A stretch of DNA of 64,000 bases. Origin: Candidatus Freyarchaeum deiterrae (GTDB lineage Archaea > Asgardarchaeota > Jordiarchaeia > Jordiarchaeales > Jordiarchaeaceae). Below are positions 34,188 through 55,409 of the stretch, in pieces. The notes beneath the pieces were generated by a model. It searched no databases. It was not told the origin of the DNA and worked only from the letters and a program-made list of their open reading frames with translations. Position 1 is the first letter of the stretch; every line of letters begins with the position of its first letter. The DNA lies in the NCBI GenBank assembly GCA_037305845.1, contig CP147778.1, forward strand, positions 2,560,001-2,624,000, given 5' to 3'. A program made the position numbers and the translations under genes.

Positions 34188-34898
34188 TTAGAAATCCTGA
34201 TTTTGCTTAAATTTCATGAAGTTGCATTCATCTAGCATTTTGAGGGGACTTTCTCTGAATGAGAACGCTTCAACAAAGCTTTTATCAATAAAGTTTGAGT
34301 GTTGTTTCCAGAGCTTTTCCGCGGTAGTTTTGCTAAGGACTTCTTTTAGTATTCCTTGTGACTGTTGTAAAAAGTGGATATAACATTCTTCTTTAGGATG
34401 AGTCTTATCAGAGTGGAATTTATGGTAGGCGTCTCTTATGCTTGCATCCCACATCATGAAAATATCAGGTTTAATTATATGTAACGCTTTCGATCCCCCT
34501 GTATACTCAATCGATTGCTTTGATGAGAATATTGAAAATATTTGCTTAATAATCTTAAAGTCTGCGTAATTCAATTCCAACAGATTTTTTCCTTCCAACT
34601 TATTCAAATCTGAGTAACATACATCAAGTGAGGATGTTATATCATTTTCCAAATTATTTCTTTTGGATGTAGGAATCCATCGTAATCGAATTGCATTCCA
34701 TGATGCAATAATCGTTTTGATACCTGCAAACATATGATTTTTATCATTTGGCTTTAAAGCAACAATATCTCTAGAAATCACATACTCCATATCTCGCTCA
34801 TTCATCTCATGATATTTTTTACATCCATTAATGACAGTTAAAGGCTCTTTTAATCTGTTAAGAAAATTTGCCACATCTATCTTCTTCATGAAAACCAA
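34188..34898 (-). CDS. hypothetical protein (possible HhH/glycosylase-like helical fold)
   Basis: TGGSKALHIIKPDIFMMWDASI and K.LDE motifs. Confidence 0.55.
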   Translation of the reverse strand: MVFMKKIDVANFLNRLKEPLTVINGCKKYHEMNERDMEYVISRDIVALKPNDKNHMFAGIKTIIASWNAIRLRWIPTSKRNNLENDITSSLDVCYSDLNKLEGKNLLELNYADFKIIKQIFSIFSSKQSIEYTGGSKALHIIKPDIFMMWDASIRDAYHKFHSDKTHPKEECYIHFLQQSQGILKEVLSKTTAEKLWKQHSNFIDKSFVEAFSFRESPLKMLDECNFMKFKQNQDF

Positions 34899-35096: not shown

Positions 35097-36203
35097 TTGT
35101 GTGACCTTTTAGCAATGAATTTCAACAAGTCTGTCACTGCAACTTTCTCTCTTAAGGGATTCAAATCTCGAGGAACATTAAATCCAGATGGTTGGGGAAT
35201 TGCTTGGTACCCTGACAAGTCTGTTCAAGTAATTAAAGAGCCGGTGAAGGCGACACAGAGTAATTTGTTCTCTGATGTGCTTAAAGACATGAAGATGGAA
35301 TCTGAAATTTTTATTGGGCATGTACGGCGTGGTTCTGTGGGTGAACCCGCCTATAGGAACACTCATCCTTTCTGGCGTGAACTAAACGGTAAAGCGTACG
35401 TCTTCGCGCATAATGGAAGCCGTAAAAATGATTGGGAGAATAGTTCCCAGCTTGGAAAATTTAAACCCCCTAGAGATACCGACTCCAAGCGTATATTTAA
35501 AGCCCTTGGTGATACTGACTCCGAGAGTATATTCTGCTATATACTCAATTGCATCGAGGAGCAACGTATAGGCAACTGGACCGAAGACTCTTTTAGTTGG
35601 CTTTTAGAAAAATTCACGGAGGTAAATAAATACTGTACTTCCAATTTTGCTATGAGTGATGGCGAACACCTCTTTGTGTATCACGATTCAGGAGGCCACA
35701 ATGGTATGGCATTGGTTTTCAGACATCCTCCTTATGCAGATGTGAAACTGAAAGATGATGAGGAAGAAGTATTGTTCGGTGCCACAAAGGATCCAGAGTT
35801 AAGAGGCTTTATTGTGACTACACTCTCAAAAACTAAGTCCCCTAACCCAAAATACCTAACAAATGAAAATTGGGAGCCAATAGAGCCGGGAGAACTAATG
35901 GTGTTCAAAAAGGGTCGCATGGTATATTCGAGTAAAAGACAAACTATACGCGAGTTAAGTAGACTCACCGAACAAGAGCTTAAAGTGTTAAGCGTAATAA
36001 GACACAATCAACACAAAATAAGCATAAATGAAATAACAAACAAGTCAGGTTACTCAGTGAGAGAAGTGGTTGAAGCTTTAAGATCGCTTAGAGAAAAGGA
36101 ATTAATAAAGCATGATACTACAGATACAGTTCAATGGAATCATAGTAATGCAAACTATTTCACCCAACCATCAAAAAGAAATGAAATATACTGGTTTCTA
36201 TGA
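35097..36203 (+). CDS. class II glutamine amidotransferase (YafJ/EgtC-like) fused to C-terminal wHTH
   Basis: Cys2 N-terminus, NPDGWG, GHVR, NTHPF, FAHNG, GDTDSE; tail ISINEITNKSGYSVREVVEALRSLREKELI. Confidence 0.85.
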   Translation: MCDLLAMNFNKSVTATFSLKGFKSRGTLNPDGWGIAWYPDKSVQVIKEPVKATQSNLFSDVLKDMKMESEIFIGHVRRGSVGEPAYRNTHPFWRELNGKAYVFAHNGSRKNDWENSSQLGKFKPPRDTDSKRIFKALGDTDSESIFCYILNCIEEQRIGNWTEDSFSWLLEKFTEVNKYCTSNFAMSDGEHLFVYHDSGGHNGMALVFRHPPYADVKLKDDEEEVLFGATKDPELRGFIVTTLSKTKSPNPKYLTNENWEPIEPGELMVFKKGRMVYSSKRQTIRELSRLTEQELKVLSVIRHNQHKISINEITNKSGYSVREVVEALRSLREKELIKHDTTDTVQWNHSNANYFTQPSKRNEIYWFL

Positions 36204-37430: not shown

Positions 37431-38372
37431 ATGCGAGAAGGATATTATAAACGTGTAGTGGAGTTGGGAGAGTTGAAGGGTATACTCATCAATATTCTGA
37501 GTTTTAATCATCCTCATGCTGCTTCTTTGTTCTCTGAGGGACTCTGGGGTTTTCCAGATAGAAGCGTTAATAGGTCTAGGTGGGCTCACATTGAAATTGA
37601 TGACCCTGTTTTAATTTTTGGCGAACTTGAAGGTAAGCGTGGAGTTTGGTTTTCGGGAGAGATAATTGAAAAGTTTGAAGACCATAAACCAGTTAAGTAT
37701 TGGATTCAGAACCCAACCGGCTACCCCTTACAGATCAGAATTAGATTCAAGTTTCCATCAGAGAAATTGTCATCAGATACTTTGAGTAAGGTTAGAACAA
37801 TTGGTAGGGAGGAGTTATCCTCAGTCTTTGACATTAACATCTTCAAGTCTAAGACTGACCGTTGGTCACTACTCGTCTTTGGGGAGGTTAAGGAGAGAGG
37901 AATCACCTACGAATACGAACCATTTAAAGCGCTCCTAGACGAGTTTCGCACGAGGAATAAAGTCATGACTGTCGAGGAAAAGCCGGAACACGACAAGGTC
38001 AAGGAGCTAATCTACCAGATTGGAGTAATCCAGAAAAGAAATCCTGTTATGGAGTATCAAATAGACGGAAGGAGGCTCGATGTTGTTTGGAAGAGAACAT
38101 CCAAGAGTGTCCCATCGGTGGCCTTCGAAGTTCAGTTTGGGGGAAACCTCTTTGAGGTGTTGACAAAATTGAAACACGCATATGACCTCTGGAACACAAT
38201 ACCAGTCCTAATAACAACGGAGCCACAGATAGACGGAGCAAAACAATGGTTAGAAGGATCATTCCACGAATTAAAAGACGTATTCAGAATAATAGAATGG
38301 AATGAGATTAACAAATATTACAAACTTAAACAGGAGACAAAAAACTTGGAGATAAACCTAGGAATACCATAA
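37431..38372 (+). CDS. EVE/PUA-like domain + PD-(D/E)XK nuclease (putative modification-dependent restriction enzyme)
   Basis: GLWGF..W..IEIDD.VLIF...YPLQIRI (EVE-like); HDKVKE...RLDVVW...AFEVQ..G...LTKL. Confidence 0.75.
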   Translation: MREGYYKRVVELGELKGILINILSFNHPHAASLFSEGLWGFPDRSVNRSRWAHIEIDDPVLIFGELEGKRGVWFSGEIIEKFEDHKPVKYWIQNPTGYPLQIRIRFKFPSEKLSSDTLSKVRTIGREELSSVFDINIFKSKTDRWSLLVFGEVKERGITYEYEPFKALLDEFRTRNKVMTVEEKPEHDKVKELIYQIGVIQKRNPVMEYQIDGRRLDVVWKRTSKSVPSVAFEVQFGGNLFEVLTKLKHAYDLWNTIPVLITTEPQIDGAKQWLEGSFHELKDVFRIIEWNEINKYYKLKQETKNLEINLGIP

Positions 38373-38603: not shown

Positions 38604-39929
38604 ATGGTTACGGAGACAGTGACTTATCCCAAAATATTTTCCGGGAAAATGGCACTTGCAACAAGTATCTATGTGTTCGTAATGCTGGCCGGATTCAATA
38701 TACTGGTTTGCTATAGTTTAAGCTTGCAAATCTTCCCCAGCCAATTTAATCCCTCAATAATCACATTTTCTCTGCTGCTTACATCAGCCTGTGTATCTGC
38801 GGTCTGCATAGGGATTATACCGACGAATTCTAGAGTATATAGATCACTGGGTCTTCCAAAGGATGTAAAAAATGATGCTATGAAAATCAGTATAGGTTGG
38901 GCTCTGGCGATACCATCTGCGTTGCTTGCCGTAATCCCTACTCTAGCAGCGGTAACACTCTTGTACTTGATGCAGTATATAGGCATCTTTCCCGCCGTTT
39001 ACCTCACCGTTCTCACAGCCCCTGCTGCCTTATTTGTAATGTGGGTATTCATAAACAGCCTTCAGATAAGACCCGGGGCAATGATATACCTGTCACCAAA
39101 AATTATGGGGGTCTTGCCAGTAGCACTCGCAGCTTGTGTCGCTATATTACTATACGCAGTGTATATCATAATCGCCGGATGGCAGAACTCATTATCCTTT
39201 CTAAAATTTTACTTTCCGTTCACATGGCTCACGTTCGTAGAAATCGTACCAGTAATAAATGTACCAGACGCATGGCCGCTAGTATTATATTCTGGCATTA
39301 TAATACTTATATACGGCGTTGCAGGAGTGGTAGCTTACCTAGCACTCGCAAGGGAAATGATTAACCCACCATCATTAACAAGCGGGCAAATAATTGTAAT
39401 GGAAGCCGGAAAGCCTTTAGAATGGAAATGGAACGAGATTAAAGACACTTTTTCAGAACTAAAGGGAGACATATGGGCCAGCTTTCCCTACCTCAACGAA
39501 GAATCCGTAGAGATGTTCAGAAGACTTCCAACGGAAGGAAAAATAAGGGTTATCACAGGAGTAATAAGAAATAGAGAAGAATTTCTAGAAGGAATCGATA
39601 ATTTAAACAAAGAAGGATGGAAAATAGGCATACGCAAAATCTACATAACAAACGATAGAAACGAAGAAAGCCCAGTATTCCATGACCGCTTCGTCATAGC
39701 GGAAAATATGCTACTTTTCCTAGGAACAGACATTATGAAAGGGTCCATGGTCAGAGAATTCTTCACAACAAAAATACCATCAACACTCATCGAGGAGAGC
39801 AACAAAATCAGAGGACTACTGCGCCACTACTGGGAAATAAAAGAAAATGATCTTAAAAAAATATACGGAGAAACAGCAAAAAAAGTAATCATAACCAAAT
39901 TTAAGGAAGCAGACCAAAAAGAAAAATAA
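38604..39929 (+). CDS. multi-TM membrane protein with C-terminal PLD-like (HDRF) domain
   Basis: ~6 hydrophobic segments, then WASFPYL...IRVIT...FHDRFVI...LGT. Confidence 0.7.
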   Translation: MVTETVTYPKIFSGKMALATSIYVFVMLAGFNILVCYSLSLQIFPSQFNPSIITFSLLLTSACVSAVCIGIIPTNSRVYRSLGLPKDVKNDAMKISIGWALAIPSALLAVIPTLAAVTLLYLMQYIGIFPAVYLTVLTAPAALFVMWVFINSLQIRPGAMIYLSPKIMGVLPVALAACVAILLYAVYIIIAGWQNSLSFLKFYFPFTWLTFVEIVPVINVPDAWPLVLYSGIIILIYGVAGVVAYLALAREMINPPSLTSGQIIVMEAGKPLEWKWNEIKDTFSELKGDIWASFPYLNEESVEMFRRLPTEGKIRVITGVIRNREEFLEGIDNLNKEGWKIGIRKIYITNDRNEESPVFHDRFVIAENMLLFLGTDIMKGSMVREFFTTKIPSTLIEESNKIRGLLRHYWEIKENDLKKIYGETAKKVIITKFKEADQKEK

Positions 39930-40013: not shown

Positions 40014-40685
40014 TTAGATATTATTGAGATATTCTGAATATTCTGTGGGATCAGGTATTCTTGCTTCCTTGAATGCTTTTCTTCGGTTTACACATGATTC
40101 ACATTTTCCGCAATGTTTTGGTCCATTAAAATAGCATGACCATGTTAATTGGAAGGGGACACCGAGTTTTGCTCCTAATTTTAGGACTTCCGACTTTGGA
40201 ATATTACTGAAGGGGGCATCTATGTTTATCGCGGTTTCCGTTCCTAATTGTGCCGTTTTTTCAAAGGATTTGTAGAACTCTTTTCTACAGTCTGGATAAA
40301 AAGGAGCATCTGAGCCTTGTGCTCCATAGAAAACTTTTGTTGCGCCAATTGAAACTGCATAAGCAACAGCAACTGAAAGAAAAATAGCGTTTCTAAATGG
40401 AACTATGATAGGTTCGCTGAAAGATGAAGTCATGTCAATACTTTCATCACAAAGAGAGGTTACTCCAACAAATATTTCGTTAAGTGAACTTAGGTCTATC
40501 TCTTTGATTGGAATTCCAAGTTTGTCTGCTATCATTATTGCGTGCTTAGTTTCTTTCGTTGCGATTTGACCATATTTAACAGTTAATGCATATTCATTAT
40601 ATCCTTCTTTTTTTGCCCAATAGGCTAGAGTAGATGAGTCAGGTCCTCCGCTTAGCACTACAACGCATTTGTTGGCATCGCTCAT
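40014..40685 (-). CDS. queC: 7-cyano-7-deazaguanine synthase
   Basis: VVVLSGGPDS, VPFRN, YPDCR, TWSCY...HCGKCESC..R. Confidence 0.95.
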   Translation of the reverse strand: MSDANKCVVVLSGGPDSSTLAYWAKKEGYNEYALTVKYGQIATKETKHAIMIADKLGIPIKEIDLSSLNEIFVGVTSLCDESIDMTSSFSEPIIVPFRNAIFLSVAVAYAVSIGATKVFYGAQGSDAPFYPDCRKEFYKSFEKTAQLGTETAINIDAPFSNIPKSEVLKLGAKLGVPFQLTWSCYFNGPKHCGKCESCVNRRKAFKEARIPDPTEYSEYLNNI

Positions 40686-40700
40686 TTTTATGACCTCTTG

Positions 40701-41123
40701 TTATATCGACCCTAGAACCTCAATCACTTCCTCTACTGATTTGTAGATGCCCCTCATCGGGACTTCTATAATTAAATTTATATCTTCTATCTTTGAAAAG
40801 GTTCGGTAGTCGGTCTTCAGTCCAATAATGGGTTTACCCAGAGCCGCTGCGTATCCGATTTCAAAGGCAACACCAGACTCGACATCTATTCCATCCAGCA
40901 CTGCAACTACTACATCACTCTTCTTAAGTGCTGTGGTGTCTGTTTTATAAATGGTGGTTTTCTCCTCCTTTGTTCCCTCGTTTATGAATAATGTCTCCTG
41001 AGCCATCCAGACCTTAAAGCCGGCGTCTCGGAGCCTTTTGACGATTTTCTCATTGAATGCTCGTTCGCTTTCACTGAACAAAGGTGAAGCTAAGAAAATC
41101 TGCATCCAAAATTCTCCTTTCAT
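40701..41123 (-). CDS. nucleoside 2-deoxyribosyltransferase family (DNPH1/NDT-like)
   Basis: IFLASPLFS..E, D...LKKSDVVVAVLDG..VESGVAFEIGYA.ALGKPI. Confidence 0.88.
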   Translation of the reverse strand: MKGEFWMQIFLASPLFSESERAFNEKIVKRLRDAGFKVWMAQETLFINEGTKEEKTTIYKTDTTALKKSDVVVAVLDGIDVESGVAFEIGYAAALGKPIIGLKTDYRTFSKIEDINLIIEVPMRGIYKSVEEVIEVLGSI

Positions 41124-41198
41124 TTATTTAGTGAAAGAGGCAAATAGGCGAGCTAGTTGTTTTTGTATTTTCTTAACAGTCTATGCTGAAATTGAATG

Positions 41199-42503
41199 TT
41201 ATTCTGATATGGGTGTTATTAAACCTTGTGATAATCGGATTTTGTCGCACCATAAAGCTGTGTTTATTAGGGTACTCATGTCGTACATGTCTACGGGGGG
41301 TTGGTTTTGCTCCGCGAGTAACAAATTTATCTCCAATAGTAATTGATTTTTAGATTTGGGTTTTTCTGGGTCTAATTTGTCGAAAAAGGTTTTGAAGGCT
41401 GGAAATTCTGAAACAATTTCCAGAAACTTTTGTTTTGCTAATCTCTCATCTGAGATTATATTTTGATAAAATTCCAAACCTTTTGGAGTTAGGTATACAA
41501 TTCCACGGGTACGTTTCAATAGACCTAACATTTTTCCGAAGCGGGTGTGATCCCCTCCACTTGTTTCCAGCTTCATGTAAACTAACGTTTGAATCGGCAT
41601 ATTATTCTCAGGACTTGAGCCCAGGTTCTTTATTAGCTCAAAAAATTTTTCTGGTACTATAAGCGGAAGTGAAGTACCCTTTCTGTCAGAACGCTCTCTT
41701 TTTTCTTTGGCGTATGAAAAGTAAAAAATAAAATTCCCAGCATCATGAATTAATTCTAAACGCGGTGGAGCATTCTCTCCGATAGATAAATACACCTCTT
41801 TACACATTTTTATTGCTGGAAGTAAAGTTTTAAGATACTTCGAAACTGTTTCTATTGTTGTATTTTCACTTTTAATGTACTTACAATTGATTTCTGTTTC
41901 TACTTGGAAATCCCCCTGAGAGGCTTCTAATGTTAGAATTTGTTTATCCGATTCCCCGTTACTTGTAATCTTTATCTCGTCCGAGATCGCAGTAACTTGA
42001 GATAGTGCATCGTAAAAAACACCTGCATTCACGTAAGCCTCGCTCAGGTAAGCGTGCTCCTTCGGATCTGGAATTATGGGCTCTGCTATGTAATTCCATT
42101 TAATTCGGTATTTAGTTAGAAGATTTGTGGTACTTCCGCTTAAAACTAATTCATTCTCATTGAAATCAATTTCAAGACTCTTAGCTCTTCTTAGTTGTGG
42201 TAGTATCTTATCTAAAAGAGAAACATCAATGATGTAGTGAGAACTATCTTTAACTTCAAAAGTACTTGATAAATCCGAGCTAGAAACAAAAAAGCTCTTC
42301 TTAAAATTAACATCAGCATAACAATAATTATGAGGATCAATACCCCTTAGGCGTATACCGTCCTGAGTTGCGGAAAATTCAGCATTCTGCAAGAATTTAG
42401 TAATATATTCAAGAATATACAAAAAGAAGTTTTTGTCCTTAACATGCAGAACTGTATCTCTCATGAGAGCCATCCATGCCCACCAACTTCTTTCGAAGCG
42501 CAC
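41199..42503 (-). CDS. PCNA (sliding clamp)-like domain fused to C-terminal winged-helix domain; start possibly at 42473 or 42464
   Basis: AEFSATQDGIRLRGIDPHNYCYADVNFKKSFF, IDVSLLDKIL, YLKTLLPAIKMCKEVYLSIGENAPPRLE...GNFIFYF match the PCNA pattern; tail has LGLL...VYLTPKG. Confidence 0.78.
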   Translation of the reverse strand: MRFERSWWAWMALMRDTVLHVKDKNFFLYILEYITKFLQNAEFSATQDGIRLRGIDPHNYCYADVNFKKSFFVSSSDLSSTFEVKDSSHYIIDVSLLDKILPQLRRAKSLEIDFNENELVLSGSTTNLLTKYRIKWNYIAEPIIPDPKEHAYLSEAYVNAGVFYDALSQVTAISDEIKITSNGESDKQILTLEASQGDFQVETEINCKYIKSENTTIETVSKYLKTLLPAIKMCKEVYLSIGENAPPRLELIHDAGNFIFYFSYAKEKRERSDRKGTSLPLIVPEKFFELIKNLGSSPENNMPIQTLVYMKLETSGGDHTRFGKMLGLLKRTRGIVYLTPKGLEFYQNIISDERLAKQKFLEIVSEFPAFKTFFDKLDPEKPKSKNQLLLEINLLLAEQNQPPVDMYDMSTLINTALWCDKIRLSQGLITPISE

Positions 42504-42504
42504 T

Positions 42505-43563
42505 TTAAATTATTTCAGAAATTTGATACATACGCTTTTTTAACTTTGCATATTCCCACAAGTATTTAAGACTAGAAACTTTCTTGGTTCCGTCAGGATT
42601 CATGGAAAATATTCCATCAATATATTTCTCATACTCATCCTCCCCGATGCTGAGTAGAATCTGCGCATTTTGAGCCTCCATTTTCATAACATACTCATTG
42701 TGAATAGCTCGGGCAGTCCAATCATTAAACAATCTTTCAGGCTCTGATCTACATATAGGGCAATCACAACTGCTCTGTAAAGCTTTAACCTGCGCAGGCC
42801 CCCTATTGTTGTTACTCTTTCCTCCAAAACTAGCAATTCCATAACCACAATAATATTCACCAGTTCCCGGAAAAATCACATTACCATAAGCCGCTTTACG
42901 CCTGTACCCCGAAGAATCGGTGCTATCCGCACCAAGATAGTAAGTAAGATGCAATGTCAAAGGCGAAGAACCAGTCCCGAGCAAATGTACCTTAAAATCA
43001 GTTAGCCGCCTCACCCCAGATATAGCTAACGAAAACATATCTATGAGTTCTTTCCTAGGTTGGCGATCCCCAAAAAACCCAGTAAAATCAGAAAAATCTG
43101 AACTCACGATACTACCGAGAGCAATCATATCACTATCAACATTTTTCTGCATCCATTCCAGATTATCGTATAAAGATTTCTTACTCCAGGAATGAACAGA
43201 AGGAACTAAACGCCCACGAAGAGTCGTACAATCCTGCCAATAAAGTATATTTTCTCTAGTTTTAAACCACAAATCTTTCATATGGGAAACAGAATCCCCC
43301 GGAGAAAAAGGAAAGTCCAAAGGAATAGCATAAACAGGATTAAATGACTCCTGAACCGCAACCACACGATTACGATCTAGATCTATCCCCTGCATTCGTG
43401 CAGTGAACGCTCCATTATCCAAAAATAAATTCTCAGTCCTATAATTTAGAGACGGAGAAATATCTTTGTAGTAATTAAATACCGAATCCATGACAAAATC
43501 TTTTTCTCGATTTTTAATTACTGGGTCCTTCTGCTCACCAATCCAAAGTATCTTCGACTCCAT
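42505..43563 (-). CDS. tRNA-guanine transglycosylase-like (TGT/DpdA-like) protein
   Basis: LFLDNGAF, IPLDFP, PSVH, IALG, VHLLG, GADSTDSS...A.YG, CDCPIC...HN zinc site. Confidence 0.85.
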   Translation of the reverse strand: MESKILWIGEQKDPVIKNREKDFVMDSVFNYYKDISPSLNYRTENLFLDNGAFTARMQGIDLDRNRVVAVQESFNPVYAIPLDFPFSPGDSVSHMKDLWFKTRENILYWQDCTTLRGRLVPSVHSWSKKSLYDNLEWMQKNVDSDMIALGSIVSSDFSDFTGFFGDRQPRKELIDMFSLAISGVRRLTDFKVHLLGTGSSPLTLHLTYYLGADSTDSSGYRRKAAYGNVIFPGTGEYYCGYGIASFGGKSNNNRGPAQVKALQSSCDCPICRSEPERLFNDWTARAIHNEYVMKMEAQNAQILLSIGEDEYEKYIDGIFSMNPDGTKKVSSLKYLWEYAKLKKRMYQISEII

Positions 43564-43614
43564 CCCTCAACCCTCATTTGAAATTCTTTTTGTCTAGAAT
43601 TTCTACTATTCTCA

Positions 43615-45198
43615 TTAAAATTTCTTCATCTCCTCTATAACATCTGGCGTATATCCTCCATGTTCTGTTAATCTTTTTGTATTAATCATAACAGTAAAAG
43701 ATAATGGAACAGCGCTACCGAAAATATAAGCTTCCCCAGGACTTAATGATTTGATCTCTTCCAAATCCTCATCAGTAACATGCTCTGATATAGCCCTAAC
43801 ATATCTTTGGTCATCAGGATTTGTTAAACGTAAAATAATTTGTGTATTGCATTGAGAAAGGACATCACTGTCAACTCTGCTTGGACGCTGGCTTACAATC
43901 CCTAATCCCATCATAAACTTTCTTCCTTCTTGAGCAATTCGTTTTAAAGATGGTTTTGATGCAGTCATTTCTCCACCCGAGGGCATAAATCTATGAGCTT
44001 CTTCAAAAATTGTTAAAACAGGTGGAATTTCATCTAGCATTCTCCCTTCCAATATTTTATTAGCAACTATTGCTATGAGTGCTTGTTGAAAAATCAGCTC
44101 CATCCCCGACATATCGATTATTGTTAACTGTCCTTTCTTTACTAGTTCCAAAATTTTAATAACCGGTTCACCAATATCTTTACGAATAAAGGGAGCTTTA
44201 TCATAAAGTAATTCTAATTTTGTATTTAAGATATGAGGAGAAGCCTCTCCATAAACTACCCTTCCTGCAACTTCACTCAGTTTATTTTTAATTTTTTCTA
44301 TATCTGTTGTGCTTCTTAGATCTGGATCTTTATGAATTGCTGACCAACCAGCTTGTAAAATTCTCCTCTGAGCCTCAGATATATCATGCAATTTTTCTAA
44401 TAAATAGATTATTTGATAGGTTTCCAAATCCCCCAGATTAACGCAAAGCCTTTGACTCTTTCTATCTTTATGAAACTTATTCTCGAATCTCTTATCTAGC
44501 AGTTTTTTAACTTGCTCAGCCGCTGTCACATAAATTTTTGTTTTATTAATAACTTTTTTAGAATCTGAGTTTCCTGCTCCACGTTCGCAGCACAGAGAGC
44601 TATACTCCCCATGAGGATCAAAAATAATTATAGGAATGTCATACTCCCTTGCTATCTGTTCAATAATAACAGCAACAGCCCAAGATTTACCCATTCCCGT
44701 CATTGCTAATACACAAAAATGTTTAGTCAATATTTCATTAAGATCTAGATGCACATCTATATTTTCGTTCATTCTAAAGCTCCCAATTACTATACTTTTG
44801 TTTAATGGTTTAATTTGTTCTTTTAAGAAATTTTCATCTGCAACAAACACCTTTTCTCCAATAGAGATTGGAGTCCTTGGTCTTCTAAATATAGTTCCTT
44901 GCCTTCTACCAATAATCTCAATTTCTCCTACTATGTAATCCTCAAACTCGCCCCGTATTCCTATACTTTTAGCATTAATATCCGTTTTAGACTCATATAG
45001 ACTTGATAACTGAACTGCACTATCTTGGTCAATAAGATAATTTCTCCTGTTAATAGAGATGATTCGCCCTAATTGTTTAGTCCCGTCTGCATTTATCTCT
45101 ACTAGCTCCCCAACACGTACATGACCTCCCGGTTTAGTAGAGAACTTAATTCGAGATATGGAAGGTGTCTCGAAAACAGTACCTATAAATGAACTCAT
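43615..45198 (-). CDS. herA: HerA family ATPase/helicase
   Basis: N-terminal HAS-barrel-like region, HFCVLAMTGMGKS, IFDPHGEY, EEAHRF, EGRKF..G...SQRPS, SQCNT. Confidence 0.92.
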   Translation of the reverse strand: MSSFIGTVFETPSISRIKFSTKPGGHVRVGELVEINADGTKQLGRIISINRRNYLIDQDSAVQLSSLYESKTDINAKSIGIRGEFEDYIVGEIEIIGRRQGTIFRRPRTPISIGEKVFVADENFLKEQIKPLNKSIVIGSFRMNENIDVHLDLNEILTKHFCVLAMTGMGKSWAVAVIIEQIAREYDIPIIIFDPHGEYSSLCCERGAGNSDSKKVINKTKIYVTAAEQVKKLLDKRFENKFHKDRKSQRLCVNLGDLETYQIIYLLEKLHDISEAQRRILQAGWSAIHKDPDLRSTTDIEKIKNKLSEVAGRVVYGEASPHILNTKLELLYDKAPFIRKDIGEPVIKILELVKKGQLTIIDMSGMELIFQQALIAIVANKILEGRMLDEIPPVLTIFEEAHRFMPSGGEMTASKPSLKRIAQEGRKFMMGLGIVSQRPSRVDSDVLSQCNTQIILRLTNPDDQRYVRAISEHVTDEDLEEIKSLSPGEAYIFGSAVPLSFTVMINTKRLTEHGGYTPDVIEEMKKF

Positions 45199-45206
45199 AC
45201 TATCAC

Positions 45207-46331
45207 CTATAACCTTTCATGAAATTTTTCCTCATAAAGCAAATGATAATATTCTGGTAAATCCTTCCTTGTAAAATTTTTTAGAAGCTGTATAATTCTA
45301 TGTGCACTTTTCTTCCTTAATTGCACTTTCATGTGTGCAGCAAATAACGGCAGAGGATATCCCGGTCTCAGAGAAAAATAACTAAAAGATGTAAATAGTT
45401 GAAGGATTTGGTCCAGTTTGTGTTTAAAAAATCCTGGAATTTCTATAAAAAATGGTTTTTGATTTGTATTTATTTTGATATACATACCTATTATATTACC
45501 TTGAAGCATTTCAATGGGAACCTCAGAACGTAAAGATTGAGTTACTTCAACATATTTTGTTCTTTTAAGATTTTTATCCTTAAATAAGTATTTAATCATG
45601 CTATATTCTGAAACTTGAGAATACTCTCCATTTGGTTTCCATTTTGAAATAAGTTCCTCCATTGATTGAATATCTTCGTCTGTGAATTCATTCTTCGAAT
45701 TTCCATTGCTAAGAGATTTGACTAGTGATAAAAAATATTTATTAGCTTGACTGTCTTTCACAACAGCAATAACTGGTATATCTTCATCCTTAAGATAGTT
45801 GAAGAATTCTGTTGAAACCTTAACATATTCATCATGAACCTCATTTATCCATGGTACTCGATCCACATGTTCAAAAAGAGCGTTATCGGGAAATGTAATA
45901 GTTCCATCAAGGAAAACCAACTTTGGAAAATTACCACTTTTATTTAATTCTTCTAAAACACTATGGGTTATTTGATATTCAAGTGTCTTCATAGATACCG
46001 AATTCACTAAACTGGAATAATATGGTGGTATAATCGATATTTTGGGTAGGTATCTTTCTATACAACCTTTTGTAAAATATGCATAAGCTACAGCTAATAA
46101 AATTGAAGTAGCCTCATACTCTTCTTGATAACTCCCACCATCAGCTGCAACTACATTAGTCTCTAAATCTTTCAAATCTGGTTTAGGTCCGTCTACTATA
46201 ATGTCGGGAATTAATTCTTTCGCGTCTTCCTCAATCTTGTGAAAAATCTCTTTAATTTTTACAAGCTCATTATACCTTCGTTTTGATATTTCACTTATAT
46301 AGCCATCAACTTCAGTTTCATATGAACTCAA
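45207..46331 (-). CDS. nurA: NurA family nuclease
   Basis: VAADGGS, FLDGTI, AVVKDS, GYPLPLFAAH; immediately upstream of herA. Confidence 0.87.
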   Translation of the reverse strand: MSSYETEVDGYISEISKRRYNELVKIKEIFHKIEEDAKELIPDIIVDGPKPDLKDLETNVVAADGGSYQEEYEATSILLAVAYAYFTKGCIERYLPKISIIPPYYSSLVNSVSMKTLEYQITHSVLEELNKSGNFPKLVFLDGTITFPDNALFEHVDRVPWINEVHDEYVKVSTEFFNYLKDEDIPVIAVVKDSQANKYFLSLVKSLSNGNSKNEFTDEDIQSMEELISKWKPNGEYSQVSEYSMIKYLFKDKNLKRTKYVEVTQSLRSEVPIEMLQGNIIGMYIKINTNQKPFFIEIPGFFKHKLDQILQLFTSFSYFSLRPGYPLPLFAAHMKVQLRKKSAHRIIQLLKNFTRKDLPEYYHLLYEEKFHERL

Positions 46332-46335
46332 CTCG

Positions 46336-46944
46336 TTACCTCCTTAGCATATTAACTATAGGTCTGAGGTGCGGATACTTATCAAGAATAGTTTTTTTAT
46401 TGTTTTCAATAAACGTTAAAACTTCTTCGAGTTTACTTTTCGTTATCTTAACTTTTTTGCTCCAGTTTTCATCAAATACATGGCTATTTAAGTATTTTAT
46501 AAAAAACTCATGTAATTCCTCATCATCCCTAAGCCTAATAAGTATATCCTCAATCTTAATTTCAATTATAGAATCAATTCTCTCTTTGATTGGTTTTTCT
46601 ACTTTGGGAACTGTGGAATATTTGGTACCATGCTTTTTTCGTAACTCTGATAAAATTGCTTTATACTCATCTCTATTAGCAGTTAATACATCATGGAAAA
46701 CAATAGGTGTGACAATATTGTTTTTCTCGTCTACGAATCCAATATCCACATTATACGGGCTTATTATTTCTTTTACTTTTTCATGTATAATCTCACCTAT
46801 ACTTTCAATTGTATACGTCTTGTTGCCAATCTTTAATTCAATTTGTTTCCAACCATAATTTATAGATGGATGATCTAAGGGAGTTAGTAAAATTTTATTT
46901 TCAAATGTTTCATTAAAACTCTTTAAAAAAATAGGTTCACTCAA
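46336..46944 (-). CDS. hypothetical protein in the operon
   Basis: Overlaps the upstream ATPase stop; 4-nt gap to nurA. Confidence 0.75.
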   Translation of the reverse strand: MSEPIFLKSFNETFENKILLTPLDHPSINYGWKQIELKIGNKTYTIESIGEIIHEKVKEIISPYNVDIGFVDEKNNIVTPIVFHDVLTANRDEYKAILSELRKKHGTKYSTVPKVEKPIKERIDSIIEIKIEDILIRLRDDEELHEFFIKYLNSHVFDENWSKKVKITKSKLEEVLTFIENNKKTILDKYPHLRPIVNMLRR

Positions 46945-49900
46945 GATGCCACCTTCTCTCTTATGATTTTATATCTAATTTCTTGTTTCTTTTTTATAGA
47001 ACCTCCATCTCTGAATTCACTTGTTATTGTATTTCTATAAAGTAGTCCGTCATTAAATATCTCTTCGATTTTACTTGGTTTACATTTGAGATTCCTAATT
47101 ATATTTTTAAGATCATCTTGAGCAAAATCATCATTCTTTCCATTTTTTAGTAATGCCTCAAGTAATATGTATCTATTTTCAGGTAAATTTTGAATTAAAT
47201 AAAGATATTTTTCAAAGTTGGTAGTGCCTTTACATTCCATATTTTCTGATAAGTATTTCTCCCATTCGGGATATCGAACGAATAATTCATTAATTTCAGA
47301 AACCATTTTCTCTATAGACATTAGAGTATCTTCATCACAATTTCTCTTGAGAAAATCCACATAATCTTTAAGAAGAAATAGATCTGATTTAGCCAATTCT
47401 CTTAATCTTGATTTTTCCAAACTACCATTCAGTTTCCCAGGATATTTTATTTCCAAATCTTTTAATATTTCATCTTCCCTGCGGGGCTGAGAAATGTCAA
47501 CTCTTATGCTTTCATATTTTTTCCACTGTTCATAAATATTTAAAGCGGTGTTAAATTCCACTATAGTTTCTGATAAAAATTTTTCCGCTTCTTGTAATAT
47601 TTCGTATCCTCTTTCCAATTCTTTTTTAATAGTTTCCAATGTAGATCTAAGTAACATGACATTATCTGTTTTGAAAAATAAATTATAAATTCTTGTAGAT
47701 AAATCTTCTACAGTTTTTTTGTTCATTGAATTAGAAACAAGACAAAGTTTTACTGCAATTTTTTGTGACCATGCCTGCAAGAAATTATCAGAGGGTAAAT
47801 TATACTCCTTTAGGGTATCTTTAATTTTGGAAAGCTCCTCTTTCTCCTCGGATTTTTTAATTTCAAAATTTATAAGATTGGTATCTGCGAGTTTAATTCC
47901 TTCTACTATTTCTCTTAAAAGTAAGTCATTAACATTTTGATGAATTTTCTTTATCTCTTGGACAAGGTCATCATCAGGTTTAACATAAAAATCTGAAATT
48001 TTATCTATTATATACGAAATTCTCTTATTATAAATACTTTTTTTATTGTAATCCATTTTAGAAAAATCTTCAGAACTAATGTCGTCTAATTCTAGCTTTA
48101 ATTTACCTAATATTGTTTTTTCAGCTTTGGACAAAGTAGCGCCAGGTATATCCTCCTTACTAATATTTTTTATTAATTCTAAAGCTTGAGACAATAAATT
48201 ATTGGGGCCAATTAACTTAATTCTCTCATCTTTAATTTCTATTAACTTTCTAGTAGTTAAAATTTTAGAAAGAAATTCATATTGTTGAATCCTAGAATAT
48301 GAAGTAAAGTATTTTTTCACAGAATTTTTAAATTCATCTACCCGAACCTCTTCTTCTCTAAAAAGAGAGAGAAATTGTTTTTCGTACTTAGAAACTTTGG
48401 AACCAATAATTTTACCATTCTCAGCTAATTCCATAAACTCCGAAAGGGTTTCAATTGCTAAATTACGCAAACCACCATCAACAGCTTTTTCAACAGTACC
48501 GATTTCCCCACCTAAATTACCTCCTTCTATACATATAGAAGAATAGGAAGAACTTTCTCTTTCAAATTGCCTTTTAAGTTCAACTTGAAGAGAACGGTCA
48601 ATATCCATAGAAACAGCATCAAATAATATCCCTTCGCTTTGCTTAATTTTTTCTTGTAACCCTGTAAAGGGGATAGTAAAACCTTTCTCAACTGCCTCAT
48701 TAATATATGTGCTGACAGAATCTCTTATAATTTTTTTAATAACATCTATGTTAGAATTAAGTATTTCACCAAGACCTTTTTTATCAAGTTTTTCGATAAA
48801 AAGACGATTTTCCATTTTACGAATCGCTGTTGCTGCTTCTCTTTTAGGCTCAGTAGTGTATGGATCTAAAACTATAATCCCTAAATCTGCTTTAATACCC
48901 TCAAGTTCAACTTTGATTTCATTTACATAGCTATCTATGAAATCTGAATATTTTTCAGGATGATAAAAAATGGCTACTTCATATACGACCTTTGAATCAG
49001 GAATTATTTCAAATTCTCCATCAATATAAGAATAACTGATGGATGTATGAGTGCAAGTCCGTTTGCTATATCTTAATTCATTTCTAATTATCTCTTGAAC
49101 ATTTTCATGTTTCAAAATCGGATCTTTATCCATATATTCTTTAATTTTTTCCGCAAATTTTGATTCTATTTCAGGAGAAAACCCGTATATCTTTTTTAGA
49201 TACTCGTCTGAAATTCTAATCACTCGAATTATACCAAATTCGTCATCTAGGTACTTCCTAAGATCATCATCCGCAATGTCAACGAATAGTATATAATAAG
49301 CTTCTCCATTGTGAAAAATTCTTTCTTTTTCTAGACCCTGAAATTTCTCTTTTAAAGTAGGGTTTATTTCAAGTTCCTTTAATTGAATATTGTACTGATT
49401 ACATTGAATTAGTATTGCCTCTCTTCTTATTGCATGTTCAAATTTTTCTATAATATCTTTATACTGATTCGGAAGATCTTTTATAATATGCCATTTTGGA
49501 TTAAATAATAAATAATAAAATAATTCTTTTGTTTTTTCATCGAAAGCTGTTACTATATTTCTCAAAAACGCGGGGTCTTTTAATGAAACGCTTACATCTC
49601 CTACTTTAATCTCAGGATTTTTATTAATTAAAACCTCTTTAATTTTATTAATATCAATTTTTTTGCCTTCTTTCCTCCAAAGATTCTCAAAAAGCTCAAA
49701 AAATATTTGAACGTAGGTTCGTGGGTTTTTCTTATTTACGCCTACTCTCCCTTCGTGTACACGGGGTGTAATAGCAAAAATAGAATTTATTACGCTTTCA
49801 TCAAAAAAATCTTCTATTTTATAACCTTCGCTCTCCATATATCTTCTAATTATCTCGTACGCAGAAAAATAGTCTAGGTCTCTTAAATCATATCTCTTAA

Positions 49901-50498
49901 CGACTACTCTTTCAGTAACATCTTCACGTGCTCTTTTGGAAACTTTTTCGTCTTCTGTTAGTCCGCTGATTACGTCAAAATAATATTTAAATGTTTCAGG
50001 ATGTAATGATAAAAGCAAGACAAAATATTTGTTACTATCTATTTTTTCTATTTTATTATCAACAAGAGATCTAAGGTCGTTTAAAAATTTTTTTTCTTCA
50101 TCTGATAATGTTGATTCTTCGCCTTCTCTCTTTTCTATTAGTTTTTGTGCTTCGTCTAAAAAAATTAATATTCCACTTTCTTTTTGTTTAGCTTGATTAT
50201 AAGCTTTTTGTAGAATATCTGCCAAATCTGGAATTTTGTCCAAATCCTTATATATAACTTCTAGTTTACCCCATCCACCCTCATCTTCACTCTTACTGAA
50301 TTTTTCTCTTAACTCTTCTATAATAGTTGTTTTTCCTTGACCATATTCTCCTATAATATTGATTATAATTAGCTGTCTTCCTGCATTGTTTTTTATTAAT
50401 TCTTTAATCTCTTCGAGTTCTAGATCATATCCTACTGGGGATATCTTTTTACCTCCAGGTGCCCCAACTTGGGGAAAAGGGTTTGGTATTTTTCTCAT
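46941..50498 (-). CDS. large P-loop ATPase (N-terminal AAA/BrxC-like domain, long helical C-terminus)
   Basis: NPF near N-terminus, Walker A GEYGQGKT, Walker B LIFLDEAQ, NPR. Confidence 0.82.
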   Translation of the reverse strand: MRKIPNPFPQVGAPGGKKISPVGYDLELEEIKELIKNNAGRQLIIINIIGEYGQGKTTIIEELREKFSKSEDEGGWGKLEVIYKDLDKIPDLADILQKAYNQAKQKESGILIFLDEAQKLIEKREGEESTLSDEEKKFLNDLRSLVDNKIEKIDSNKYFVLLLSLHPETFKYYFDVISGLTEDEKVSKRAREDVTERVVVKRYDLRDLDYFSAYEIIRRYMESEGYKIEDFFDESVINSIFAITPRVHEGRVGVNKKNPRTYVQIFFELFENLWRKEGKKIDINKIKEVLINKNPEIKVGDVSVSLKDPAFLRNIVTAFDEKTKELFYYLLFNPKWHIIKDLPNQYKDIIEKFEHAIRREAILIQCNQYNIQLKELEINPTLKEKFQGLEKERIFHNGEAYYILFVDIADDDLRKYLDDEFGIIRVIRISDEYLKKIYGFSPEIESKFAEKIKEYMDKDPILKHENVQEIIRNELRYSKRTCTHTSISYSYIDGEFEIIPDSKVVYEVAIFYHPEKYSDFIDSYVNEIKVELEGIKADLGIIVLDPYTTEPKREAATAIRKMENRLFIEKLDKKGLGEILNSNIDVIKKIIRDSVSTYINEAVEKGFTIPFTGLQEKIKQSEGILFDAVSMDIDRSLQVELKRQFERESSSYSSICIEGGNLGGEIGTVEKAVDGGLRNLAIETLSEFMELAENGKIIGSKVSKYEKQFLSLFREEEVRVDEFKNSVKKYFTSYSRIQQYEFLSKILTTRKLIEIKDERIKLIGPNNLLSQALELIKNISKEDIPGATLSKAEKTILGKLKLELDDISSEDFSKMDYNKKSIYNKRISYIIDKISDFYVKPDDDLVQEIKKIHQNVNDLLLREIVEGIKLADTNLINFEIKKSEEKEELSKIKDTLKEYNLPSDNFLQAWSQKIAVKLCLVSNSMNKKTVEDLSTRIYNLFFKTDNVMLLRSTLETIKKELERGYEILQEAEKFLSETIVEFNTALNIYEQWKKYESIRVDISQPRREDEILKDLEIKYPGKLNGSLEKSRLRELAKSDLFLLKDYVDFLKRNCDEDTLMSIEKMVSEINELFVRYPEWEKYLSENMECKGTTNFEKYLYLIQNLPENRYILLEALLKNGKNDDFAQDDLKNIIRNLKCKPSKIEEIFNDGLLYRNTITSEFRDGGSIKKKQEIRYKIIREKVAS

Positions 50499-51308
50499 TT
50501 AATCCCTCCATTTTAATAAGGTGAATGCGGCTGGAATGGGTGGCTTAGGGAGTCCTCCAAGAAAAGTTATTTTTTCTTCTTTGTATAATTCGATTAATTT
50601 TTGAAAAATAAGTGGTATATTTAACTCTTCCTTTGTACCTGTATAAAATTCATGATAATTATTAATTAATTTTTGACATATAACTTTTGTTAACTCAAGC
50701 TCGGTTTCTTTTAACAGCCTTTTAACCAGTTTTTGAAATTTATCTTTATCAAATTTTAATTTATATTCATCAGAAATTTTGTAATAATCACTATCTTCTA
50801 ATTCAATTACACCAAGATTTTTAAAACAATTAAAAGTATTATCGAAACTTATTCTATCATATATTCTAACTCCAAAATCTTTAGAAGAATTCTCAACTAG
50901 AAACTCGAATAATTCCTCTTTTGTGAATTTATAGTAACTTTCTCTCAAGATAATATTGTAAGCATAATTATACCAAAAAATTCCTGAATATAATGCATCA
51001 TGAAGAAATCTGCATTTCCTACTTACTTCATCAATTTCTAAGTAATGTTCACCATTATCGGTAAGGGTATATTGCTGTTGAGCTTTTTTAGCGTCAGGAT
51101 TTTCTAAATTAATAAAACCAATTTTTTTTAAAAACTCTAAATGACCATCTCTTGTCTTTGCGTCAAATCCATTTTTGGGAATATTCTCTTTAAACTCTTT
51201 TTTTCCAGATTTATTATCAAGATGTTGAAGAATTTTTTCGATATAATCCTTCCAATCTTTTACTAACATTATAGACCATGTAGTATGCAAATTATGCCGC
51301 ATCCCCAA
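50499..51308 (-). CDS. winged-helix repeat protein (DUF4007/BrxA/Mrr-N-like), first gene of the operon
   Basis: HLEFLKKIGFI...YTLTDNG...RFLHDAL...Y...FTKEEL...FKNLGVI; abuts the ATPase start. Confidence 0.65.
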   Translation of the reverse strand: MGMRHNLHTTWSIMLVKDWKDYIEKILQHLDNKSGKKEFKENIPKNGFDAKTRDGHLEFLKKIGFINLENPDAKKAQQQYTLTDNGEHYLEIDEVSRKCRFLHDALYSGIFWYNYAYNIILRESYYKFTKEELFEFLVENSSKDFGVRIYDRISFDNTFNCFKNLGVIELEDSDYYKISDEYKLKFDKDKFQKLVKRLLKETELELTKVICQKLINNYHEFYTGTKEELNIPLIFQKLIELYKEEKITFLGGLPKPPIPAAFTLLKWRD

Positions 51309-52200
51309 TTAATTCTTAAATATAATTTTTCTATATCTTTTGATATTGCTTTTAGTTATTAATTAATACATCTTTCCATTTTTGTTGGTCAAATATAAAT
51401 ATATTTTCTAGATTTATATAAAAATTGTGTAAATTTCTTAACGAAAGTTAAATATGGGAGTATATGATATGATACGCTATTTTTTAGGTAATTTGATAAA
51501 ATAATATATAATTTAAGTAATTAGCATGGGTGATTTTACAACTGTCCGTAGCCTTTCCACCTAATTTTCTTATTTTAAAAATAGACATATTTTTTTTAAA
51601 AAAATACGAGCATTAAAATGTTGATATTTGTAGTTTTTAGTTGTAGCAATTTGTGTATCTTGGCTGGTTTTTAGGATTGCTCTCAATTTTTGCTCCCTTG
51701 TTTGAATAACATTTAGGTTTGTTCTAATTTTCCTTTTAGCAATTTTTATAGTGATTGCGTTTGCTATTCGGATAAACATCTCTTAAGCATTTAAAGTAAT
51801 AGTAGTGATTTTAATAATGGGTACCATACATTTAATTGTACGTTTTGCTGTTCTATGGTTGAGTAATTACACGGGTTGTAGGTAGGATTTTGGGCATTCT
51901 TCGATTGGGGTGAGTTTTTCTATTCTTAGGGCTTTGTCGAGTGGCGAGTTTGTTTGGTCTAGTCATTCTTCTTCTAGGAGGGTTCTCTTGGTTTTTTCAT
52001 AGTTGTTTCTGTTAGTTGAGTCCGGAGTAGTTTAGGAGGCTGTGTGTGGCTTCTATTTTGGTGATTTGTTGTAGACAATTAAATCTATAAAATCTTCGTC
52101 TTTTTCCTCTTTCTCTTTTTCGGCTTATGAAGTTTTGTAGATAAACGTATTATATTTTTTATCATTTGATAATATGTCTAAAAAGTGAATTAGGTGAGGG

Positions 52201-54176: not shown

Positions 54177-55409
54177 GTGCTGGAAACGATCACGGTGACC
54201 AGAACGGAGCAAATCCACCTCAAGCCCAGCAACATCCTGAGCAGACTGTGCCATTATTCCAAAAACCTCTACAACCAAGCAAACTACATCACCAGACAAA
54301 CCCTCCTCAAAACCGGAAAATGGATGAGATACGAGGAACTCGCGGGAGCGCTTAAAAACTCTGAGAGCTACAAAACCCTACCAGCACAAACCGCCCAGCA
54401 AACCCTGAAAACACTAGACAGGAGCTGGAAAGCGTACTTCAGAGCAACGGAGGAGTGGACTAAAAACCCGGACAAGTTCCTTGGGAGACCGAAGATGCCC
54501 GGGTACAAGGAAAAAAACGGAGAACACATCCTAATCTTCACAAACCAACAGTGCCGAATAACTGGCGGAGAAATAAAATTTCCCAAAAAGGCGAACCTGA
54601 ATATTAGGGTTAAGACGCGGCTGGACGACGAAACACCTCTCAGGGAGATCCGAATAGTGCCCAGGGGCTGGGGCTACGTCTTGGAGGTGGTCTACCACAA
54701 GACCGTCGTGGAGCCGCAGAAAATACTGGACCGGGACAGAGTGGTGGGTGTGGATTTGGGATTGAGGAACACCGTAACCATGGTAAACAACATCGGAGAG
54801 AAGCCGATTGCTGTTAAGGGCGGTGCCCTGAAGTCCATAAACCAGTACTACAACAAGGAGAGAGCGCGGCTGCAGAGCATCTACGACCGACAGAAGATTA
54901 AGACTAGTGGCTCTCTGCTTCTTAAGCTTACCGAGAGGAGGAACCGGAAGATACACGACTTCTTCCATAAACTGAGCCGCGTAATCGTGGAGTGGTGCGT
55001 AGGACACGATGTGGGCACCATTGTGGTCGGCTATAATGGCGGTGGCTGGAAGCAGAGTCCGCGTCTCGGGCGGAGGAACAATCAGAACTTCGTTCAGATA
55101 CCCTTCCAGAAGCTTCTGCGGCAGATCCGTTACAAGGCTGAAGAGGCGGGAATAACCGTATTGGCACGAGAGGAGAACCACACCTCAAAGTGCAGCTTCC
55201 TGGACCTTGAACCAGTGGAGCACCATAAGGAGTACGCCGGTAGGCGAATAAGTCGGGGCATGTTCCGATCGAATAAGGGAGTGGTAATCAATGCGGATGT
55301 GAACGCCGCCTACAATATTATAAGGAAGGCATTCCCGGAAGCTTTCACAGCGGACGGGATAGAGGGTGTGGGGCTTCACCCGGCTAGAATGGATTTAAAC
55401 ACATTCTAG
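54177..55409 (+). mobile_element. tnpB: IS200/IS605-family TnpB (solo, IS1341-like)
   Basis: SKNLYN, LPAQTAQQ, PKMPGY, GVDLG, HKLSR, YKAEEAGI, EENHTSK, INADVNAAYNI; GC-richer than flanks. Confidence 0.92.

Follow-up and report, generated by a model that had tools for sequence, protein, structure and literature searches.

The 64,000-nucleotide stretch analysed here (the window) comprises positions 2,560,001 to 2,624,000 of CP147778.1 from the Asgard archaeon Freyarchaeum deiterrae, whose published genome is one contig of 3,576,204 bases (PMC11291895; labelled G000 below), and contains at 40014-51308 an operon of nine genes that includes a TGT-fold guanine transglycosylase (TGT) and a paralog of the sliding clamp PCNA. 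We propose that this operon is probably a mobile, clamp-coupled archaeal restriction-modification system, similar to Dpd, which marks self DNA with preQ0. The conserved core of the system is smaller than the nine genes and consists of the TGT, the clamp and an exchangeable effector cassette, whose type in the window is called cassette A. The features of the operon are as follows, in the direction of reading.

50499-51308, minus strand: multi-winged-helix (wHTH) protein, 267-269 aa, of a 13-member family; candidate DNA-site reader of cassette A
46941-50498, minus strand: large AAA+ ATPase (AAA_22), 1185 aa, with an N-terminal ATPase and a long helical tail
46336-46944, minus strand: conserved 202-aa protein without a named family; homologs in the same position in loci L099 and L101-L104
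45207-46331, minus strand: NurA-family nuclease, dedicated paralog (Pfam NurA, 1e-12)
43615-45198, minus strand: HerA translocase, dedicated paralog (HAS-barrel and DUF87)
42505-43563, minus strand: TGT-fold guanine transglycosylase, 352 aa, predicted DNA writer (invariant residues, AF2 model and structure comparison)
42505-42531, minus strand: C-terminal tail of the TGT resembling a PCNA-interacting-peptide (PIP) box, residues 345-352, MYQISEII (register and predicted complex)
41199-42503, minus strand: PCNA paralog fused to a tandem winged-helix domain; probable ATG at 42464, 421 aa (NCBIfam sliding clamp, 2e-18)
40701-41123, minus strand: nucleoside 2-deoxyribosyltransferase (NDT) or hydrolase-family protein (Pfam PF05014, 2e-23)
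40014-40685, minus strand: canonical QueC (preQ0 synthase), accessory second copy (TIGR00364, 188 bits, cut-off 150)

A preliminary description of this DNA, made from the letters alone, had reported nine co-oriented genes with short gaps, and the open reading frames are indeed intact, uninterrupted and all on the minus strand. The intergenic gaps are 0, -4, 4, 8, 51, 1, 75 and 15 nt, two of them becoming 40 and 93 nt with the likelier ATG starts of the clamp (42464) and NDT (about 41105), and the identical gene order is found in independent Logan assemblies. Searches of Pfam and NCBIfam returned AAA_22, NurA, a HAS-barrel and DUF87 HerA, TGT, sliding clamp, Nuc_deoxyrib_tr and canonical QueC, upholding the domain calls made earlier, and the TGT and PCNA folds were confirmed by structure; neither the wHTH gene nor the 202-aa protein could be placed with confidence in a family of these libraries. 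The AT-richness ascribed to the operon stands for the whole, with a GC content of 32.8% against a genome median of 40.7% (just 0.15% of the 11-kb windows are lower), and is located mostly in the first five, effector, genes (27-35%), the TGT, clamp, NDT and QueC genes lying at 36-42%.

The active site of the predicted writer, formed by D49, D83, H124 and D216, is invariant among its relatives and aligns to D95, D130, H181 and D256, the active site of DpdA (PMC10164549), and the zinc site C266/C268/C271/H288 is also invariant. The enzyme has a His where tRNA TGTs carry Gln, and its DNGAFT and HxW motifs are nearer to those of DpdA (DCGAFT and HGW) than to those of the archaeosine TGT, arcTGT (DSGAYQ and QGG). 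The AF2 model (pLDDT 90) is a TGT barrel, for which VIA gave Z scores of 27.8 with arcTGT (rmsd 2.9, 302 residues aligned), 20.5 with DpdA and 18.6 with Cap10. As in DpdA there is no N-terminal lid, the alignment to 1IQ8 beginning at residue 23, and the PUA domain is missing too. Since the best Z score is to arcTGT and the residues and motifs match DpdA, the enzyme has a fold closest to arcTGT and a DpdA-like active site. It reaches 26 bits with the NCBIfam arcTGT model (cut-off 350), the DpdA-family hidden Markov models of PADLOC and NCBIfam gave no match to it at E 0.01, and hhalign relates it to DpdA at 93% over 155 columns only. The possibility that this is the only archaeosine tRNA TGT of the genome was dismissed, because the host has a separate arcTGT of 540 aa, which is 25% identical; the TGT of the operon is thus distinct from the tRNA enzyme of the host. 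We found 194 relatives, the best 120 of the 194 showing 48-58% identity.

Some TGT genes related to this family were seen in other contexts. A PUA-less TGT which keeps the N-terminal lid and has no PIP tail occurs in all five genomes of one Asgard genus, in housekeeping context in L112 (9362-10420), L114 (9213-10271) and L115 (6963-8021), labels with L denoting loci of our survey; this clade may represent an additional tRNA enzyme and form a link to the DNA-acting family. A Dpd cluster on a Paenibacillus plasmid (L097:9345-14148) encodes a second small TGT, matching the writer family at 96.7% in hhalign, which is followed by a gene without assigned function and a P-loop NTPase. At L116:4218-9150 a TGT relative lies amid small unannotated genes in a viral-looking run, the next protein being a weak primase match, and in L088-L090 a TGT shortened to 286 aa, possibly a broken copy, precedes a 123-aa open reading frame, no clamp or cassette being recognised there.

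The partner of the writer is a two-domain PCNA fold with a PIP pocket, as judged from the model (pLDDT 91), the predicted complex and a Foldseek match to archaeal PCNA (E 9e-18, TM 0.79-0.87 by target). It is only 18% identical to the PCNA of the host (at 1.669 Mb in G000), and in its C-terminal domain it shows homology to the product of the wHTH gene of the operon (hhalign 88.5%). That the neighbourhood recurs in other archaea, a check suggested at the outset, was borne out: 50 of the 59 distinct-writer loci having at least 400 nt downstream contain a clamp gene, L094 and L095, which carry a divergent clamp, not being counted as clamp-less, and all seven ATPase homologs looked up in a reverse check cluster with a TGT. 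The tails of the writer family follow the PIP-like pattern Y-x-R-I-S-x-[VAIL]-L-F, whose register is fixed in 117 of 146 distinct tails (neighbouring registers, at most 3). Canonical tails of the form Q-x-x-L/I-x-x-aromatic exist where the flanks show no clamp (QTVLDMFL in L091, QQTLTLYL in L015 and QKILDVYF in L093), and a more distant Asgard relative without a clamp, in L126, ends in the canonical PIP box QSKILQYL; the background for such tails is 10 of 2188 long open reading frames of the genome. This last locus (L126:8690-11104) contains two tandem TGT paralogs, each with a PIP-like tail, near a DpdJ-like helicase.

The transglycosylase guided by a clamp that had been supposed from the gene content is now predicted from the tail register and from a modelled TGT-clamp complex. 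The predicted complex scored 0.63, the best control 0.26, on a scale whose mark is reached by 58 of 80 solved pairs and 2 of 110 mismatched pairs; the runs share at least 52% of contacts, with a partner pLDDT of at least 79. The best-defined contacts place TGT residues 345-351 on clamp residues 42-49, 233 and 248-253, which in PCNA structures form the PIP pocket, and I348 of the tail occupies the peptide pocket of the clamp in this prediction. The model supports binding between TGT and clamp without proving it, and a tether to a clamp makes sense for DNA, not for tRNA.

The locus survey covered 89 related loci, reduced to 65 distinct writers. Among the 35 loci with at least 6 kb downstream, 31 hold exactly one of three cassettes and none holds two. 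Cassette A, that of the window, comprises wHTH, AAA+ ATPase, small protein, NurA and HerA. Cassette B, the commonest, comprises an ATPase, a protein of 315 aa with a weak resemblance to the wHTH (hhalign 46%), a split DpdJ formed by a DEAD helicase and an MZB protein (hhalign 100% and 89%, PADLOC 1e-43), and a phospholipase D-type (PLD) protein which matches DpdK (hhalign 97.7%, PADLOC 3e-8). Cassette C comprises HerA, a 1450-aa protein with an ATPase-matching N-terminal part, and NurA. The absence of Dpd partners asserted earlier is therefore correct for the window and not for the family, where the commonest cassette encodes DpdJ and DpdK. The ATPase N-terminal region of cassette A is common to the large proteins of B (hhalign 96%) and C (97%), and the minimal effector common to the cassettes is wHTH, ATPase, motor and nuclease.

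Writers 84-87% identical bear different cassettes, A or B, and in the tree, where the root and the sister group of the window are not resolved, A and B loci are interleaved within a 99/100 clade; one and the same writer has exchanged its effectors. The usual order around the ATPase homologs is clamp, DUF5591, TGT, wHTH, ATPase, small protein, NurA and HerA, and the order in L105 is that of the window with DUF5591 replacing NDT and QueC. Asgard TGTs that are more remotely related (380-410 aa) also neighbour DpdJ-like helicases or a clamp-less cassette of wHTH, large protein, NurA and HerA.

The wHTH family has an invariant C-terminal P-x-PPI motif and HTH_45 in 5 of 13 members; in the Atlas it falls near DpdG-like, BrxA and FokI recognition clusters (TM 0.50-0.55), which are leads only. 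Fourteen ATPase homologs share the Walker A motif GxxGQGKTT, the Walker B residues DE, H166/P167, R197 and R260, and solved-structure searches with the wHTH and ATPase profiles gave generic winged-helix or helical matches only. The 202-aa protein, without Atlas or Pfam identity, has the invariant motif L-x-x-P-x-x-HP-x-I-x-Y-x-W and probably belongs to the ATPase module, because it is fused to the ATPase C-terminus in two relatives (P0122 and P0123). In NurA the acidic motifs are intact, DGs and LLDG being conserved, and HerA shares 40-46% identity with its counterparts in sister cassettes and no more than 28% with the full-length HerAs of the host.

The preliminary description had treated the nine genes as one unit, which they are not: among the 65 relatives QueC accompanies the writer in 5, QueT in 3, DUF5591/ArcS2 (with a PC-x3-KPY motif) in 18 and NDT in none, and HAD or NDT enzymes are also accessory. 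The QueC of the operon scores 23 bits with the QatC model (cut-off 280) and is 37% identical to the host QueC encoded elsewhere; a 70% identical QueC together with QueT adjoins the TGT in L007 and L020, and L084 reads TGT-clamp-QueT-QueC, compared with TGT-clamp-NDT-QueC in the window. The accessories QueC, QueT and ArcS2 point to the supply and maturation of preQ0. NDT, found in addition beside one distant locus (L118), possibly serves in modified-base salvage or pool cleaning. Elsewhere in the host genome lie an arcTGT, an ArcS-like gene, another QueC, QueD, MptA and PCNA, as well as a separate NurA-HerA pair at 2.077 Mb, so that the genes of the operon are extra paralogs.

Two observations concern the surroundings of these accessory genes. 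A paralog of NDT, 78% identical, lies elsewhere in the host genome (G000:C1 249139-260000) near an apparent DGQHR-type protein, a restriction endonuclease, Vsr and a 2134-aa protein, which look like a second defence-like island. In the window, 4 kb from QueC, the gene at 35097-36203 on the plus strand joins a class II glutamine amidotransferase (GATase_4, 7e-71) with a winged helix; fusions of Gat and QueC produce archaeosine, and this amidotransferase shows no link to the operon in other loci.

The writer occurs in named genomes of Bathyarchaeia, Nitrosopumilus and other Nitrososphaerota, Desulfurococcales, Methanomethylicia and Promethearchaeota. It was not found in five congeners (87-99% complete), the core family is present in 2 of 251 genomes of the phylum, and no TGT relative was detected among IMG/VR viral contigs, a combination that, to judge from the sequences compared, is the pattern of a mobile island. 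A viral origin was rejected because IMG/VR holds no relative.

The earlier statement that the combination of genes matches no known system agrees with our comparisons: PADLOC returned strong matches among the nine genes to HerA and QueC alone and recognised no system, and no paper describing the combination was found in the literature searched, which covers few subscription journals. By the tests run, the operon would work like Dpd without being a member of it. It shares with Dpd (Salmonella Montevideo DpdA, PDB 7UI4; PMC10164549) a TGT-fold writer with the four active-site residues, the zinc site and no lid, optional preQ0 genes, DpdJ/DpdK homologs in the sister cassette B and a sporadic island distribution, and differs in that the writer is a separate family, a PCNA paralog and a PIP tail are present and the effector of the window is NurA-HerA. 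Homologs of DpdB, C, D, E, G and I were not found by phmmer or hhalign in the core loci. A DpdB-like gene (phmmer) lies solely near two Lokiarchaeal loci, not in the window; DpdC and DpdD, with queries of two sequences each, had no phmmer match at any locus and were negative in hhalign; and of DpdE-K none is in this window, where the weak Atlas lead from wHTH to DpdG is the sole hint. By size and order the wHTH, ATPase and 202-aa protein had been candidates for DpdG, DpdH and DpdI, an identification rejected by hhalign (0.5%, 13.6% and 0.5%, the ATPase match to DpdH not being significant) and by NCBIfam models blank in the operon, and we keep the resemblance as an analogy. The identification of DUF5591 with DpdC was rejected as well (hhalign negative).

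Other systems share parts of this gene content. The BREX-Related Capture (BRC) system (PMC12839542) also has a TGT, HerA/FtsK, an ORC/Cdc6-type AAA+ ATPase, a multi-wHTH protein and neither DpdB nor DpdC; it is, however, defined by PglZ, DUF6079, STAND NTPase, DUF4007 and GNAT with an optional TGT, which here is constant. None of these five had a Pfam or PADLOC match in the nine genes, and the BRC paper makes no mention of NurA or PCNA, both present here (PMC12839542). Capture systems built on HerA/FtsK, an Orc/Cdc6 ATPase and wHTH proteins (PMC10853773) repeat the theme of wHTH, AAA+ ATPase, HerA and nuclease, but NurA, PCNA and TGT do not appear in that paper, and these systems have REase domains and use phosphorothioate or no mark. 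The viral DpdA and ArcS2 of Vibrio phage nt-1 and STSV2 (bioRxiv 10.1101/2023.04.13.536721) resemble the operon in an insertion of preQ0 without DpdB, here predicted, and in a stand-alone DUF5591/ArcS2 gene, as near 18 of 65 relatives, whereas the operon is cellular and linked to effectors and a clamp, and the window has no ArcS2. arcTGT (PDB 1IQ8), the best structural match, has the same zinc site and Val-type pocket region; the writer differs from it by the missing lid and C1-C3/PUA domains, His for Gln, the PIP tail and not being universal in its lineage. Type IV CBASS Cap9/Cap10 and QatABCD also place QueC and a TGT fold in defence context, but the QueC here is canonical and the zinc site, lost in Cap10, is retained; in agreement with the preliminary description, PADLOC found no CD-NTase, Cap11 or QatB/D match in the nine genes. 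The archaeal HerA-NurA-Mre11-Rad50 repair operon differs in that Mre11 and Rad50 are absent from the nine genes and the sister loci.

We propose that preQ0, provided by QueC and the host pathway, would be the substrate of the TGT, which is predicted by model and motif to dock on the co-encoded PCNA paralog through its PIP-like tail. Thus tethered on duplex DNA, the TGT would exchange guanine for preQ0 by a DpdA-type reaction with two aspartates, the site being probably chosen through the winged-helix domain of the clamp. The wHTH-ATPase pair would then read the sites, and HerA-NurA would translocate along and degrade DNA devoid of the mark; relatives would attach other effectors, DpdJ/DpdK-like, to the same writer. 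For this locus we predict dPreQ0 as the final product, and relatives with DUF5591/ArcS2 probably carry archaeosine (dG+), because ArcS2 turns dPreQ0 into dG+ for phage nt-1. Both the marking of DNA and the destruction of unmarked DNA are what we infer from the enzyme families.

Several observations weigh against this proposal. The TGT model is structurally nearer to the tRNA-acting arcTGT than to DpdA, the tail or the clamp is absent in some members (L012-L014, L113 and L118), most tails of cassette C deviate, and the host genome yielded no clear QueE. PIP and PCNA are a textbook binding pair, and the complex score may therefore reflect likeness to solved structures. Bacterial DpdA requires the ATPase activity of DpdB, which is absent here, and that the clamp replaces DpdB is our conjecture. 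The published PacBio and nanopore study of this genome reports, in the part available to us, five m4C-type motifs only; no unusual G mark is reported in that part, nor was one looked for there.

Among the explanations that depart from our proposal, it seems unlikely that the mark is real and the cassette, instead of cutting unmarked DNA, blocks replication as in BREX, kills the infected cell or serves mainly as an addiction module by which the island is kept. Pairs of wHTH and AAA+ ATPase do resemble BREX/Ssp scaffolds (the BrxA lead of the Atlas; PMC10853773), how Dpd itself restricts has yet to be settled in the literature (PMC5699537) and the island is patchy and AT-rich; each cassette nevertheless encodes a member of a nuclease family, which is NurA with intact acidic motifs in A and C and PLD in B, together with a translocase or helicase. 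Rather improbable, in our judgement, is an action of the TGT on the invader, in which, borne by the clamp on replicating foreign DNA, it would excise guanine or a viral 7-deazaguanine, or tag the DNA, the lesion recruiting HerA-NurA or DpdJ/K. The chemistry of TGTs is a reversible base exchange, 7-deazaguanines occur in archaeal viruses, glycosylases attacking them exist, and most loci are without a preQ0 gene (QueC in 5 of 65), but hosts bearing arcTGT have preQ0 regardless, QueC, QueT and ArcS2 are genes of supply and maturation, and bacterial DpdJ/K accompany a self-marking DpdA.

We regard as very unlikely a deazaguanylation of proteins or signals of the kind seen in type IV CBASS (Cap9/Cap10), Qat and TIM-B, in which QueC would attach the base to a protein, while the TGT fold, by binding or transferring it, would control an effector. 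The QueC and TGT pairs of CBASS do this and Cap10 is a structural neighbour (Z 18.6); here QueC is canonical and optional, the zinc site is kept, no CD-NTase or QatB was found and the clamp tether suggests DNA. We would be greatly surprised if the TGT were a second tRNA transglycosylase, or the operon a housekeeping repair unit, placed by chance among island genes. arcTGT is the nearest solved fold, the lid-bearing clade has housekeeping context in L112, L114 and L115, and HerA-NurA and PCNA are repair proteins, but the operon was not found in congeners, the host has copies of all the housekeeping genes, and the fixed linkage to a divergent clamp, the effector exchange, the PIP tail and the lack of a PUA domain argue against it.

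The operon is flanked by GIY-YIG, an IS605/TnpB gene, PIN and metallo-beta-lactamase genes, so that the label of nuclease-rich island given earlier is fair. The TnpB gene (54177-55409, plus strand) is of the IS605 family, with several genomic copies, and the 610-aa metallo-beta-lactamase-fold protein (31990-33822, minus strand) has an Apyc1-like Pfam match and a weak LmuA match. Two island genes without library match encode a protein of 313 aa, whose C-terminal part seems to include a PD-(D/E)XK-like stretch (37431-38372, plus strand), and a membrane protein of 441 aa, in which a PLD-like FHDR motif is apparent (38604-39929, plus strand). For a 236-aa protein (34188-34898, minus strand), Pfam, PADLOC and PHROG gave no identity; a SKALHIIKPDIFMMWD stretch in it may resemble helix-hairpin-helix glycosylase-like families. 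Upstream of the operon, at 51560-52070, about 450 nt with 68-73% identical copies at 270.6 and 271.6 kb of G000 and in congeners are possibly a decayed insertion sequence. A sigma-70 promoter scan, whose consensus does not cover archaeal promoters, remained at chance level. A published DefenseFinder/PADLOC survey of the F. deiterrae genome lists CRISPR, type IIG restriction-modification, Hachiman and DISARM, and makes no mention of HerA, queuosine or deazaguanine (PMC11529989).

No report of 7-deazaguanines in archaeal chromosomal DNA was found in the literature searched, where the reports cover bacteria and viruses. If our proposal is true, such a mark is predicted in Bathyarchaeia, Nitrososphaerota, Desulfurococcales and Asgard hosts, whose writer family is missed by the PADLOC models, and public PacBio and nanopore data exist for this genome, under BioProject PRJNA1050611 (PMC11291895), that can be re-read for it; the marks of bacterial Dpd are sparse. 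The operon suggests a route by which a transglycosylase may reach duplex DNA without DpdB, with a replication clamp turned into a dedicated component of a modification system; the docking of DNMT1 on PCNA is a parallel. A bolder version, which we put forward tentatively and hold to be doubtful, is that of a private orthogonal clamp, forming its own ring, loaded by its winged-helix domain or the AAA+ ATPase of the system and not by the host loader, and carrying the base-exchange enzyme by means of a non-canonical PIP box shaped by co-evolution; it would amount to a clamp-borne marking of archaeal, including Asgard, chromosomes with a hypermodified base, served by plug-in restriction cassettes. 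One writer associated with three effector cassettes would make directly testable which Dpd genes restrict, and a marking pair coupled to any one of three mutually replaceable gene sets for attack on DNA suggests a restriction-modification design that we did not encounter in the literature searched.

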